Source: an uncultured delta proteobacterium (GTDB taxonomy: Bacteria > Desulfobacterota > Desulfobacteria > Desulfobacterales > SG8-13). Taken from it: a DNA stretch of 41,041 bases. A program made the position numbers. Positions within the stretch are counted from its first letter, which is position 1. The number at the start of each line of letters is the position of its first letter. Shown in pieces: positions 6,001 to 9,000 of the stretch. Where the stretch lies: assembly GCA_963848135.1 (NCBI GenBank), contig CAWKCK010000012.1, positions 94,061 through 135,101 of the forward strand, written 5' to 3'.

Positions 6001-9000
6001 TCTTTCTGTCTAATCCTTGACAGCGCTTTCTTCACACTGGCTGTTTTTGCGGCCAGCTCGCTGTTTTGCCCCATGACTCTCGGTAGCCATTTGATCGATT
6101 CTGTGTCGTTCACGACTCTTCGTCTCGTGAGCGTCGCATTGGCATTGTTTACTTATTCGTGACGGGTTGCCATCGATATGGCCCATGAAAAAGTATTGGC
6201 GCAACAGGCCGTTTCATCGAGAACGCGATGAAACCTCGCTGCGGACAGGCCAGACAGAAAAATCTGCTTTTTCTTTGAACCCCACCCCCACGTTGCCATC
6301 GTTAGTATATAAAATCCAGGCATAGGCGGGATCGTAAACACTCGTCGTGGACGACCAATACCCTTCACCAATATTTTGAAAGGGATGGGATTCGGGAAGG
6401 GACGGGCTGTGCTGATCGAGCGCAACCAGACTCTCAAGTTCGCGGATGTTGGGAAGACGCCAGTCATCATAACCGTGTGTTCTGTTCGCATTCAATCGCT
6501 GCACCTCTATCAGGGATGCGGGCCAGTTCAAAACATCTTTCGAGCCCATGGCCGAACGCAGCCACATCAATCCCGTCGATCGATCGGAGACAAGATGACC
6601 GGAAAATTTGAAGCGATCACCAGGGGCAATCGGGTTGACTGCTTGCAATTGTCTCACCGGCCAGACCAGATAAGAGCCCTGCTTCATCCCCTTAAATACC
6701 CTACCACCGCCAAGGTGCACATACCATGCCTGTTTTGGCCACTGGGCGCTGGGGCTGGACGTCCAGTAATATCCTGCGAAGACATTGGTAAATGGATGGG
6801 CGGCCGGCAGCGCCGGATTGAATCGGCTATGGCTGATCAGACTGAACAGCTCACGTCGATCCGGCAACCGCCAGTCGTCATGCCCATGAAAGCATGACGC
6901 ATTCATCCAGTCGACATATTCAAGGGCTTCCCCCCACGTCTGGGGAAACTCAGCCGGCGTAGCGTTTTTCGTCCATATCAAGCCACTAAGGAAATCTTTA
7001 ACCACCACCTCCTGCTCTTCGAACCGCGGCATTGGCCAGGTTCGTCCGGCACGGATGTCTCCATCCTGTCCGGTTCCCTTGCAGTCGATCTCCTGTCCGC
7101 GGGAATCATAGCACCGAGTTTGATCTGTTTGATAAAGGGGCGAATATGCGTTCATTGCAAAAAAATATGTTGGCTGAAGTAATAGTTTTAATAGTCCGCT
7201 CAGAACGGTTCACAAGCCATTCCTCCGGATCTGCCGGAGGTCAATGGATCTGCGCAGTAATTACCCATCGTTTCCGTTTATCCAGCAGTGACCGGGTATG
7301 TTTTACACAGGTCTGCTTGTAAGCCCGTATGTTATTTTTTGTAAAGAAACAACTAATAATACGTAATATCAAGTACTTAATTTACAAGTGCCACAAAGTG
7401 GCACATAACGTGCTTAACTATTTTATAAACAGAATCAAGAAACGTAGCCAGAGATGGAATCAAATCCGTCGGATCGTTCCAGCTAAAGTGCGCATGGCCT
7501 CTCAGATGATTCGATCTTCCCTTGTCACGGTATTCTCGGGCCTTAAGGGTTAGTATTCATAGTGATTTCTATTGGCGGAAAAGAACTCTAATATTTAACC
7601 CTAAAAAGAGTGCATGTCCAGGAGTGATAGTGAAATTTTCGCTGAAATCAATTCTGTTCATGTTCTGGTTGTCAATAATGGCAACCGTTGTTTACTTCTA
7701 CCTGCTAAGCGGGATGACATTCATCCAGCTTAGCAGTGATCTTCAAAACCTTATCAGCTCCGCTGGCCCTGGCGCCACTATCGCCTTTGATGTTATTTTC
7801 AGTGGTCTTTTGGACGACTGCCTCTTATTCAATGAGCCAATCCAATCTTATTGACCAACTTAACGGGGTGGATGCTTACAAGGCTCTGGCCCTTGCGAAC
7901 CAGTGGCACTGGGAAAAGCAACCCGTGAAAACTCATATCACCACTAATGAAGTCGTATTTCAATTTGATAGCGGTACCACCAAAACAATTGCACTTCCTA
8001 GTGAAAAAGTCATGATTGCCGTTGCCCCTTATATTAATAAAACACACACATGAGGGGTTCACTACATGTCCTCCTGTCAGGGGGAATTGACTCAAACAGT
8101 ATTCAACGTCAAAGCCGTCGATTTAAAAGGCGATGTCATTATAAACTCACCCATCATTTCTCTGGAAAACGGATTTATAGAACTTTGGTTGCCAAGAGAG
8201 CGAACAATTAAATTAACCATCGAAGGGTTGAACCGTTCAACCACCGGTGTTATTTCGACCGCGATCGGCAGCAACACTTGCATAACCACCTTTCAACTTT
8301 ATTAACTGGCTTCAGAAAAATTTTTGCGTAAGTCAGGGACATTCAATCCGTTTGACTATATCACCAGAAGGTCCTGCATCAATCTGGTTGAGATGGGCGG
8401 CCAAATAATATGGCCCACTTATCTTATTTAACCTGTGTGTAGAGCACGTTTCATCACGCAGACTACCATTCAGCCATTTTCCCTACATGGATAAATAAAA
8501 TCGGCTTTGATAATTGATATTTTTTGACGGATAATTGTATCTTTGATAGTGACATGATCACCGGTTTTCTTTAAAAATTATACAAATCGGAATTATTTAA
8601 ACTGCTGAGAACAATTAAAAAGGGGGGTAAAAATGAAGAGAAAGATTTTCCTGGTTATGTTTTTCATTTTGACTGTTTTCGCAACTACGGCCTTTGCCAA
8701 TAAAACGGCCGTGACCATCGAATCGCCCCTATCCGTAAAAAAGGGGGCTGAAATAATTATTAAAATCAATATCAGCCACAGCGCTAACAACTTTTTCCAC
8801 TACACAAACTGGGTTTACGTTCATGCCAATGGAAAAGAGATAGCGCGCTGGGATTTTACACGCAGCAATAAACCCGAAAGTAGCAATTTCACCAGGGAAG
8901 TCAGATACACGGTGACTGAAACAACGGAGATTACCGCAATGGGCAACTGCAACATGCATGGGAGTGCGGGCGAGGTTAAAATGGTGATAAAGGTAGAATA

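Follow-up and report, generated by a model that had tools for sequence, protein, structure and literature searches.

A CueP-family protein of an uncultured delta proteobacterium with a probable selenocysteine in its metal/redox site

Results and discussion

The cueP reading frame and its predicted product

The window analyzed here is a stretch of 41,041 nucleotides from an uncultured delta proteobacterium (Desulfobacterales, SG8-13; assembly GCA_963848135.1, contig CAWKCK010000012.1, positions 94,061 to 135,101), in which a gene of the CueP family is interrupted by a single in-frame TGA. Positions count along the window unless stated otherwise, residues are numbered from the GTG start, and the following features are considered:

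7515..7782, + strand: unrelated segment of 268 nt in place of the native cueP 5' region, recognized by comparison with a same-genus locus (L019)
7736..8305, + strand: CueP-family frame with one TGA read through, 189 aa from GTG 7736 (PF21172, NF038094, 4GQZ)
7790 and 7832, + strand: other candidate starts of the cueP frame, ATG 7790 (171 aa) and ATG 7832 (157 aa), with the stop at TAA 8303-8305
8045..8047, + strand: His104, one residue of the Cys/His-rich site (His94 in Salmonella CueP), invariant in both alignments
8051..8053, + strand: UGA proposed to be read as selenocysteine (U106), equivalent to Cys96 of Salmonella CueP by the 4GQZ alignment
8060..8062, + strand: His109 (His99 of Salmonella CueP), between the UGA and the Met that starts the 79-aa call
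8065..8089, + strand: SECIS-type hairpin within the coding sequence, stem 8069-8075/8079-8085, loop GUC 8076-8078
8075..8077, + strand: Cys114 (Cys104), partner of U106, its codon running from the final base of the 5' stem arm to the second base of the loop
8279..8281, + strand: Cys182 (Cys172), third cysteine of the site, invariant in one of the alignments, its motif NTCITT aligned to SQTCLTE of 4GQZ

Between 7736 and the TAA at 8303-8305 the frame has a sole interruption, the TGA at contig positions 102111-102113, exactly where the initial annotation had located it. The gene had been called as a 79-aa product (8066-8305), which that annotation took for the C-terminal part of a longer CueP of 157-171 aa; this proved right, as both the frame and the match to the Pfam model CueP (PF21172) continue across the TGA, while the two lengths correspond to ATG 7832 and ATG 7790 and a further start, GTG 7736, extends the product to 189 aa. 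The product of ATG 7832 would begin at the predicted mature N-terminus (MSQSNL). PF21172 scored 108.8 bits (cut-off 27) over residues 60-187 of the read-through protein and profile positions 13-138 of 138, against 18.2 and 69.5 bits for the separate pieces on either side of the TGA. The NCBIfam family model NF038094 (CueP_fam) reached 128.7 bits (cut-off 60), the equivalog model for the Salmonella type (NF038095) gave 96.3 bits with a cut-off of 195, and a phmmer comparison with Salmonella CueP (4GQZ) returned an E-value of 4.4e-18. By these profile matches the read-through protein is a member of the CueP family without being of the Salmonella orthologue type.

An AlphaFold2 model of the read-through protein had a mean pLDDT of 91.3, with residues 1-30 low (pLDDT 57-62), and its best PDB matches in Foldseek were the 4GQZ chains (E 7e-15; runner-up E 2.8e-3), with TM-scores of 0.86-0.88 (target-normalised) and 0.73-0.74 (query-normalised) and an rmsd of 2.6-2.7 Å. 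The predicted fold is thus like that of Salmonella enterica CueP (4GQZ; PF21172; NF038095), with which the protein shares the family and all five residues of the site: His104, U106, His109, Cys114, and Cys182 correspond to His94, Cys96, His99, Cys104, and Cys172, the residues listed for the Salmonella Cys/His-rich site in the available part of PMC3935622. The differences are that selenocysteine would stand here for Cys96, that the structural alignment shows no more than 32% identity, and that the hosts of the UGA-bearing form are anaerobic Desulfobacterota as opposed to an enteric pathogen, with no cueR-type context seen. In the motif (..INKTHT-U-GVHYMSSCQGEL.., U-x7-C) the UGA aligns with Cys96, so the earlier proposal that selenocysteine replaces the first cysteine of a C-x7-C pair agrees with the alignment.

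TGA and cysteine forms among related loci

A search for related loci, built on a 16-row protein alignment, recovered 71 distinct loci, with TGA at the U column in 37 of them and a cysteine codon (TGC/TGT) in 34, a contrast that answers the possibility of a TGA conserved by chance. The TGA had first been noticed in nine of nine full-length matches; in the larger sample of 401 genomes of the order, all 17 full-length matches, found in 15 genomes, carried exactly one in-frame TGA. In the tree, a branch with 99% SH-aLRT support sets the Sec forms, along with three long-branch Cys rows, apart from the rest, and the same-genus copy L019 is 96% identical to the window CueP over 145 protein columns. 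The Sec form is one CueP lineage, present in sulfate-reducing and syntrophic Desulfobacterota.

The genome to which the window belongs has a tRNA-Sec (selC, 76.5 bits) as well as SelA, SelB, and SelD, the last of which itself contains a TGA. SelA, the one component looked for in the other genomes bearing the TGA form, was present in 14 of 14.

A SECIS-type hairpin within the coding sequence

Downstream of the UGA, the sequence UCCUCCU-GUC-AGGGGGA can form a 7-bp stem to which two further pairs are added (8065-8066 with 8088-8089). The 7-bp stem begins at a distance of 18 nt from the U, or 15 nt from the A, of the UGA; the loop begins 22 nt past the UGA, and the core has an MFE of -8.3 kcal/mol. 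The bacterial SECIS model, as set out in the available part of PMC13188914, specifies a stem of 4-16 bp, a loop of 3-9 nt with G in its first two positions, a UGA-to-loop distance of 16-37 nt, and an MFE of at most -7.5, and the CueP hairpin falls within each of these ranges. It shares with the bacterial SECIS consensus (bSECISearch model; E. coli fdhF type) the position of the stem-loop within the coding sequence right after the UGA, the small apical loop beginning with G-U, and the 22 nt spacing; it differs in a family-specific sequence without an Rfam match and in a loop of 3 nt, the minimum of the model.

The hairpin was found in all 37 TGA loci, and the Cys forms are unable to form the stem: 96.9% of the stem cells are paired in the former vs. 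58.2% in the 34 Cys loci, and the core MFE is -7.5 or lower in 31/37 and 0/34, respectively, the core stem of the remaining six Sec loci being weaker, at -4.7 to -6.7 kcal/mol. Synonymous constraint over the hairpin exists only in the Sec forms. There, the first Ser codon is TCC in 31 loci and TCT in 4, the next Ser is TCC in 37/37, Cys114 is TGT in 37/37, Gln is CAG in 34/34, and Gly is GGG in 32 and GGA in 4, while no such restriction is seen in the His, Tyr, and Ala codons on either side, and both CAC and CAT occur at His104. The Cys forms, in contrast, use five Ser codons, four Gly codons, and both Cys codons (TGC 21, TGT 13 at the Cys114 position). The SECIS thereby constrains the protein, since stem and loop encode Ser-Ser-Cys-Gln-Gly-Glu.

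Three Sec loci have a C-to-U change in the 5' arm with the matching G-to-A change in the 3' arm, which preserves the pair (pair 27-39 is CG in 31 and UA in 3). Covariation nevertheless lends the hairpin little support, since its stem hardly varies: both sides changed in only two pairs (4 cells), and shuffles equalled the observed percentage of paired cells and covariation score in 22/500 and the observed number of pairs changed on both sides in 171/500. Folding energy alone also fails to single out the hairpin, as the 71-nt region around the UGA is no more stable than shuffles (z -0.60). Rfam models of bacterial SECIS elements are gene-specific, and for this reason we gave no weight to the Rfam search, in which no family reached the gathering threshold over the whole window or an E-value of 10 or lower around the UGA.

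Coding constraint past the UGA and the meaning of the codon

Purifying selection acts on both sides of the UGA. In four pairs, dN/dS ranged from 0.13 to 0.18 ahead of the TGA and from 0.23 to 0.46 past it, or roughly 0.2 on either side. Were the UGA a true stop, with the locus encoding two polypeptides or a C-terminal remnant, the codons between it and the next Met would be left untranslated. His109 lies there and is His in 37/37 Sec loci with synonymous variation (CAC 11, CAT 26), which shows selection at the protein level and therefore argues against a stop, and the Met itself, start of the 79-aa call, is missing in 9/37. A true stop would also leave the hairpin specific to TGA forms, the cysteine at the U column in 34 homologues, and the Pfam match as one domain to be accounted for. 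It is how gene callers annotate the locus: among short database relatives 38/48 are 79 aa long, the 7 fetched of these all starting with MSSCQGEL, and the five N-terminal pieces that were fetched all end in ..TH[TK]. We regard termination at this codon as very improbable. These pieces, which stop just before the U column or begin at the Met just after it, and the C or W of the longer database homologues bear out what had been described initially for this column.

The W, recorded in six database relatives (P0003-P0008), speaks for another reading, in which a variant code or leaky read-through would place one of the standard amino acids Trp, Cys, or Gly at the TGA. These six gene calls appear to have used a table in which TGA is Trp. 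TGA is, however, the ordinary stop of 10 of the 25 Pfam-supported ORFs in the window, the Sec machinery is complete, the SECIS-type hairpin stands at the canonical distance, and Trp or Gly would abolish the conserved metal/redox Cys site, all of which make this reading exceedingly improbable.

From sequence comparison, the in-frame UGA of cueP is almost certainly read as selenocysteine, at the position of a key metal/redox cysteine. The selenoprotein reading of the initial annotation is thus upheld by the conserved UGA with Cys homologues at the same column, the hairpin specific to UGA forms, purifying selection on both sides, and a full set of Sec machinery.

A replaced 5' end in the window genome

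Similarity to the same-genus locus L019 resumes only at 7783; the segment before it (7515-7782) is unrelated to the 134 nt that L019 has instead. This segment occurs once in the genome and supplants the promoter-proximal region, the ribosome-binding site, the start codon, and the first ~14 signal-peptide codons of the native gene. It brings its own AGGAG (7620-7624) and GTG (7630), from which a 75-codon frame for a hydrophobic peptide enters cueP out of frame and stops at 7852-7854; taken as the 75-aa frame from 7627, the peptide had no match in NCBIfam and may, in our impression, resemble the N-terminus of a TVP38/DedA-type membrane protein. The orthologues, judged by eye, have a GGAG-type Shine-Dalgarno site and a leader of the form M..K/R..hydrophobic..small-x-small, whereas no Shine-Dalgarno sequence precedes the candidate starts at 7736, 7790, or 7832. 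Contigs from four sequencing runs cover cueP only in pieces and are informative at the junction (7783-7786). Those of run X1 contain two separate forms, one with a canonical N-terminus joined at 7783 and one in which the upstream segment enters a different gene at 7786, while in run X2, which may be the source of the assembly itself, one 151-nt contig bridges 7719-7869 without mismatch and represents the joined form. The start codon had been flagged as uncertain from the beginning; the uncertainty is real and was understated, as L019, the run contigs, and the orthologue leaders indicate that the native start itself has been replaced.

With its native 5' end replaced, the window copy is possibly impaired, unexported, or untranslated. 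The family would then still consist of selenoproteins, with the window copy recently disabled and no exported CueP made from it, as the unrelated segment, the lack of Shine-Dalgarno sequences, and the separate X1 forms could suggest. Against this stand the intact Sec codon and SECIS, the absence of any other stop or frameshift in the remainder of the gene, its 96% identity to the L019 copy, and a dN/dS of 0.24 between the two; moreover, a leader starting at GTG 7736 would combine a single Lys with an extended hydrophobic stretch and the native SYS cleavage region, and coupled translation is possible at ATG 7832, which is overlapped by the final part of the chimeric upstream frame. Translation may begin at GTG 7736, giving an improvised signal peptide, or at ATG 7832, giving none, or may not occur, and we hold a disabled copy to be a serious possibility, though one short of even odds.

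Gene neighbourhood

The metal-related genes of the window comprise three multicopper oxidases, a CopA-type ATPase, and YHS and HMA proteins. TsoB (NF045694, 997 bits), a rhodanese/DsbD fusion with a U-x4-U motif, lies 1.9 kb downstream of cueP, and TsoB and the TsoC motif both fall 1.9-4 kb downstream; the Tso names reportedly come from Haft and Tolstoy 2025. A desulfoferrodoxin-like protein with a signal peptide is also a neighbour of the window cueP. The copper island with multicopper oxidases, CopA, TsoC, and DsbD that the initial annotation described is indeed present in the window, but it is local to the genus: tblastn found seven window neighbours only in the same genus and no TsoB near the other 36 Sec loci (within flanks of 1.5-4 kb), so the adjacency of cueP to tsoB/tsoC is seen in the window genome only and is not a conserved neighbourhood. 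Of the other Sec loci, 15 have long flanks, in which metal-related neighbours occur in about five cases and housekeeping genes in the rest; 68 ORFs from these flanks, scanned with Pfam, gave no common partner. Two of the Sec-type genes (L043 and L056) stand beside copper-type P-type ATPases and a multicopper oxidase.

These neighbourhoods bear on whether copper is the substrate. A Sec-CueP relative with another task, either periplasmic selenol/thiol redox (radical or oxidant scavenging) or the binding of another soft metal such as Hg, Ag, or Cd, would fit the majority of Sec-type loci that lack metal-gene neighbours, the score below the Salmonella-type equivalog cut-off, and the company that the window cueP has in the desulfoferrodoxin-like protein and in TsoB and TsoC, both redox selenoproteins. 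According to the part of PMC3935622 available, reduced Salmonella CueP itself scavenges reactive oxygen species directly. The retention of all five Cys/His site residues and the copper genes beside L043, L056, and in the window island speak against a non-copper role, which we consider unlikely.

Proposed role of the selenocysteine

The reading we favour, with a probability of roughly 85%, is that the gene encodes a CueP-family periplasmic copper-handling protein, in which the UGA at 8051-8053 would be recoded to selenocysteine by SelB and tRNA-Sec under the direction of the hairpin at 8065-8089. The data show the recoding signals with their conservation, the homology, and the fold; from these we infer the insertion of selenium, the redox cycle, and its reductant, and, by homology with the Salmonella protein, copper as the substrate of the window CueP. 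For the latter, the available part of PMC3935622 describes that Cu2+ induces the Cys96-Cys104 disulfide while itself being reduced. As Cu2+ drives Cys96 into a disulfide with Cys104 there, we propose that selenocysteine, taking the place of Cys96 amid the equivalents of His94, His99, Cys104, and Cys172, would likely bind Cu(I) as a selenolate and/or reduce Cu(II), pairing with Cys114 as a selenenylsulfide in the process. Sec-CueP would then be re-reduced by a DsbD/ScsB-type thiol reductase of the periplasm.

Several predicted metal-related selenoproteins of bacteria appear in Table 1 of PMC13188914: a YHS-domain protein, CopZ-family 2Fe-2S proteins, an E1-E2 cation ATPase, the SO_0444 Cu/Zn efflux transporter, and MbdU. 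They resemble Sec-CueP in having Sec for Cys in a metal/redox motif, in having been found by Sec/Cys homology, and in occurring mostly in anaerobes, but belong to unrelated folds and families, with UxxC, CxxU, or CU motifs as opposed to the TH-x-U-x2-H-x4-C of CueP. Predicted periplasmic thiol-disulfide selenoproteins (DsbA-like, DsbG-like, and thiol:disulfide interchange proteins) and TsoB are likewise redox proteins, exported or in the membrane, in which a Sec is paired with a Cys, and differ from CueP in their thioredoxin or rhodanese folds.

Conclusions

CueP had been described as lying outside the published selenoprotein list, which agrees with what we found: PF21172, NF038094, and NF038095 are all missing from Table 1 of PMC13188914 (2026; 119 prokaryotic selenoprotein families), CueP is not in the BSepDB supplement, and it is not among the families of Haft and Tolstoy 2025 as given in the 2026 review. 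We read Sec-CueP as a new selenoprotein family, one well-supported addition to the roughly 119 prokaryotic selenoprotein families and subfamilies known. Its recognition corrects a systematic annotation error, by which these genes appear as a 79-aa "CueP family" stub plus an unnamed N-terminal stub, or at full length with a W. The cueP hairpin also shows clearly how a SECIS can overlap a functional loop and constrain it.

Speculatively, and in our view rather doubtfully, Sec-CueP would be the first metallochaperone-type protein whose selenolate is both a direct Cu(I) ligand and the redox-active partner in a selenenylsulfide. With DsbD-like reductases that contain Sec, such as TsoB, it would make up a periplasmic relay based on selenium, by which sulfate reducers handle copper in sulfidic, anoxic sediments, and the need for a SECIS within the metal-site loop would have fixed the Ser-Ser-Cys-Gln-Gly-Glu sequence there. 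The selenocysteine sits, unusually, in the metal/redox site of a copper protein that is characterised both structurally and biochemically, and because of this the question of Sec vs. Cys is directly testable in CueP.

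Reading frame and metal site

Positions 7736–8305, + strand: cueP frame, opening at GTG 7736 (also ATG 7790 or ATG 7832) and ending at TAA 8303–8305, with TGA 8051–8053 as the sole interruption

Translation table 11 cuts this frame into pieces of 105 and 79 amino acids. Read through the TGA (residues numbered from GTG 7736), the product was recognised as one Pfam CueP domain (PF21172, residues 60–187, 108.8 bits, cut-off 27), vs. 18.2 and 69.5 bits for the separate pieces, which supports the initial annotation in placing the TGA in frame inside a single CueP-family frame. It also scored 128.7 bits with the NCBIfam model CueP_fam (NF038094, cut-off 60) and 96.3 bits with the Salmonella-type CueP model NF038095, without reaching the cut-off of the latter (195). 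Salmonella CueP (4GQZ) was the sole relative with a solved structure (E 4.4e-18), and the structure predicted from 39 aligned sequences (mean pLDDT 91.3, low confidence confined to residues 1–30) gave three significant matches in the PDB, all of them 4GQZ chains (TM 0.86–0.88, target-normalised; rmsd 2.6–2.7 Å).

When aligned to 4GQZ, the TGA column falls on the Cys of ..RTHPCFNHSLSGCQGEM... Passages of PMC3935622 number the Salmonella peptide 93-THPCF-97, 98-NHSLSGCQGEM, name Cys96, Cys104, Cys172, His94 and His99 as the putative copper site, and report a Cys96–Cys104 disulfide induced by Cu2+, itself reduced meanwhile, as well as a Cys96–Cys172 disulfide formed with oxygen. Salmonella His94, Cys96, His99, Cys104 and Cys172 correspond to H104, U106, H109, C114 and C182 of the window protein; the UGA therefore stands for Cys96, a member of both disulfides.

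Conservation of the TGA

The read-through protein was searched against 401 genomes of the same order, resulting in 19 places in 17 genomes. All 17 full-length places (15 genomes, the window's own included; 40–93% identity) have exactly one in-frame TGA, one of them with an additional upstream TAG, and the other two are fragments of 32–36 residues (E 1e-5); the earlier claim of an in-frame TGA in all full-length matches thus holds in a larger sample of the order. Scanning one genome per species for the pattern confirmed 62 loci, with TGA in 28 and TGC or TGT in 34 at the U column. After removal of eight duplicates, the combined set held 71 distinct loci (L-numbers below), 37 Sec-type and 34 Cys-type. 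Judged by record titles, the Sec type occurs in Desulfobacterales, Desulfobulbaceae, Smithellaceae and Desulfohalobiaceae, in unclassified 'delta proteobacterium' bins and in two further bins, one labelled actinobacterium and the other Proteobacteria; the Cys type is found chiefly in Spirochaetota and Deinococcota. Matches were few in the order sample (prevalence ~4%) and in a 401-genome phylum sample (four, with TGA in three and without it in one), and the family is therefore sparsely distributed.

In a maximum-likelihood tree of the 37 Sec and 34 Cys rows with the U/C column masked, all Sec rows and three long-branch Cys rows share one side of a branch (99% SH-aLRT), the other 31 Cys rows being opposite, and the U/C label requires two changes vs. 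a mean of 24 after shuffling. The three long-branch Cys-type genes inside the Sec clade (L079, L086, L095) have the loop S-[TSK]-C-[KD]-A-E and no hairpin; they have either reverted from Sec to Cys or been misplaced by a long-branch artefact. The protein database also contains one close Cys form, P0002 (64% identity, THKCGVHYMSSCLGEL). Two genomes carry two Sec-type paralogues each, namely L035 and L019 in G211 (identity to the query 93% for one copy and 71% for the other) and L020 and L036 in G393 (60% and 43%), every copy with its own TGA and hairpin.

Coding past the UGA

Nei–Gojobori dN/dS in four pairs was 0.13–0.18 upstream and 0.23–0.46 downstream of the TGA. His109, located between the TGA and the Met used by gene callers to start the 79-aa piece, is encoded by one or the other His codon in 37/37 Sec loci, and nine of the 37 have Ile, Phe or Val instead of that Met; a stop at the UGA followed by re-initiation cannot account for this pattern. 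The genome itself encodes tRNA-Sec (76.5 bits, cut-off 47), SelB C-terminal wings (two places), SelA, and SelD with its own TGA, and SelA was found in all 14 other same-order genomes with the TGA form. Known selenoproteins are also encoded in the window. TGA is the stop of 10 of the 25 Pfam-supported window ORFs and is therefore not reassigned across the genome.

A SECIS-type hairpin

Positions 8069–8085, + strand: hairpin UCCUCCU-GUC-AGGGGGA, beginning 15 nt past the UGA, with two extra pairs (8065–8066 with 8088–8089)

The hairpin that the initial annotation had placed downstream of the TGA is present, and it agrees with all four criteria of the bacterial SECIS model as worded in the legend of Fig. 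2 of PMC13188914.

Table. The cueP hairpin and the bacterial SECIS model (legend of Fig. 2, PMC13188914)
Feature; model; cueP hairpin
Apical loop; 3–9 nt; GUC, 3 nt
Upper stem; 4–16 bp; 7 bp
Loop G; G in the first two loop positions, often then G or U; G-U
UGA-to-loop spacing; 16–37 nt; 22 nt
MFE; ≤ −7.5 kcal/mol; −8.3 kcal/mol

Standard pairs fill 96.9% of 324 pair cells across the 37 Sec loci, vs. 46–74% when the hairpin partner was slid by 1–3 columns as a control. The same structure imposed on the 34 Cys loci paired just 58.2% of cells; at its three central pairs the bases fail to pair in 25, 33 and 30 of the 33 distinct Cys rows. A core stem of ≤ −7.5 kcal/mol was reached in 31/37 Sec vs. 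0/34 Cys loci (Cys median −1.6). The strongest argument for the hairpin is codon usage, while the codons flanking it in Sec loci are free (His CAC 17/CAT 20 and CAC 11/CAT 26, Tyr TAC 16/TAT 13, Ala four codons).

Table. Codons within the hairpin
Position; Sec loci; Cys loci
First stem Ser; TCC 31, TCT 4; TCC 13, TCG 10, TCA 3, TCT 2, AGC 5
Second position; Ser TCC 37/37; Gly in 25/34
Cys; TGT 37/37; TGC 21, TGT 13
Gln; CAG 34/34; CAG 27, CAA 1
Gly; GGG 32, GGA 4; all four Gly codons
Glu; GAA 34, GAG 3; GAG 19, GAA 15

True covariation is scarce because the stem is nearly invariant; CG is changed to UA at one stem pair in three Sec loci (L043, L075, L081). The observed percentage paired was matched by 22 of 500 shuffles, and the pairs changed on both sides by 171 of 500. 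The 71-nt region around the UGA folded no better than shuffles (z −0.60), and Rfam gave no match to the window or the UGA region.

A replaced 5' end

DNA similarity between the window and L019, the same-genus locus, extends through the upstream Lcl_C gene and picks up again at 7783, leaving 268 nt in the window (7515–7782, unique in its own genome) vs. 134 unrelated nt in L019. In orthologues, a Shine-Dalgarno site precedes a leader such as MTIRYSIKKLLIIVPLTLLSVVFLTTASYS; the window copy has no native start, n-region or Shine-Dalgarno site. The start codon, previously called uncertain, is indeed ambiguous (7736, 7790, 7832), but the native start itself is gone. The foreign segment opens a frame of its own, whose end overlaps the cueP ATG 7832:

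GTG 7630 (preceded by AGGAG) to stop 7852–7854, + strand: 75 codons, hydrophobic peptide, out of frame into cueP

In sediment sequencing run X1, one contig joins a canonical ..YSIKKLLII.. leader at 7783 and a second departs from the window sequence after 7786 into a different gene, which shows two ancestral arrangements. A 151-nt contig of run X2, which may be the assembly's own source and so is not independent, spans 7719–7869 with zero mismatches. Given the separate X1 forms and the bridging X2 contig, the junction looks real. This copy has a damaged 5' end. Its translation starts at GTG 7736 (leader MIFKTLSAPLALAPLSPLMLFSVVFWTTASYS) or, without a leader, at 7832, or else the gene is silent; the rest is intact and close to the same-genus relative (dN/dS 0.24).

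Genomic neighbourhood and proposed copper role

8633–9001, + strand: desulfoferrodoxin-like protein with signal peptide; weak desulfoferrodoxin/neelaredoxin iron-domain Pfam match (31.4 bits)
9484–10155, + strand: ArsR-rhodanese regulator, weak TsoR-like match
10175–11989, + strand: TsoB rhodanese/DsbD-fusion selenoprotein (NF045694, 997 bits, cut-off 805)
12181–12204, + strand: TsoC motif NEPNGKPU in a small frame just past tsoB
12518–13027, + strand: GcvH-related protein (NF045810, 256.9 bits)

Salmonella CueP is said to serve a periplasmic superoxide dismutase. The desulfoferrodoxin-like gene lies directly 3' of cueP, also in L019, and its product may be a periplasmic superoxide-reductase-like protein. 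The other four features make up a Tso-type neighbourhood next to cueP. TsoB, a known family, has two in-frame TGA (10586–10588 and 10601–10603, ..VFYUAGLTUVRS..) and under table 11 falls apart into two calls, a rhodanese stub of 137 aa and a DsbD piece of 453 aa. Farther downstream are three multicopper oxidases, an outer-membrane efflux protein, YHS and heavy-metal-resistance proteins, and a CopA-type ATPase.

The copper/metal island described initially is thus found in the window, but of 15 further Sec loci whose flanks are long, only a minority have metal neighbours: L043 has a YHS/HMA P-type ATPase on one side and a multicopper oxidase on the other, a YHS/HMBD P-type ATPase lies near L056, CDF, RseC and HMA genes surround L081, and DUF305 and a SHOCT protein are near L055 and L051, respectively. 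Housekeeping neighbours were seen at 10 of the 15, and no TsoB was found within the 1.5–4 kb flanks of any other Sec locus. The case for a copper role thus draws chiefly on homology and on the site being intact. A DsbD-type protein might recycle the CueP selenenylsulfide, by analogy with the Scs/DsbC system that reduces Salmonella CueP.

Two more window frames contain a TGA:

21654–22586, − strand: PrdB/GrdB-like frame with in-frame TGA (..LLTPAUGICNQ..), called as a 188-aa fragment
20889–21251, − strand: YHS-domain protein with TGA right after ..GGKTPSCH

The former scored 168.9 bits with TIGR04483 (under the cut-off of 300), and its product probably belongs to the known reductase selenoprotein B group. 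The 83 further open codons of the latter are unconvincing in sequence and no NCBIfam model matched, the YHS selenoprotein model included; its TGA is probably an ordinary stop.

Annotation and novelty

Eight of 48 near-length relatives are 103–110-aa forms, and the four aligned ones stop just ahead of the U column (..THK, ..THQ, ..THE); W occupies this column in six full-length forms, and C in more distant ones. Of 48 shorter relatives, 38 have a length of exactly 79 aa (7/7 examined start MSSCQGEL; NCBI names one 'CueP family metal-binding protein'), and five N-terminal pieces examined finish ..THT or ..THK. The truncated N-terminal forms and the C or W at the U column, as initially described, were borne out among the relatives aligned, and since N-terminal forms stop before the U column and 79-aa forms start after it, the family is systematically split in annotation.

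A full-text literature search for CueP with selenoprotein or selenocysteine returned nothing relevant (one unrelated paper). CueP, PF21172, NF038094 and NF038095 are absent from Table 1 of a 2026 review (PMC13188914), which gives domain identifiers for its 119 families and subfamilies; none of the terms CueP, copper, PF21172 and periplasmic occurs in the BSepDB supplement (PMC13326102, 111 families), and no NCBIfam selenoprotein model matched the window protein at E ≤ 0.01. CueP is therefore treated as a new selenoprotein family, by standard Sec/Cys-plus-SECIS logic. The conserved TGA, the Cys homologues and the hairpin, together with the absence from that Table 1, support the initial interpretation: the Sec-containing CueP lineage is real and, judging from the searchable literature, has yet to be described. 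Its SECIS is family-specific and embedded in the metal-site loop, and the family is an addition to the well-known class of selenoproteins, with no new mechanism.
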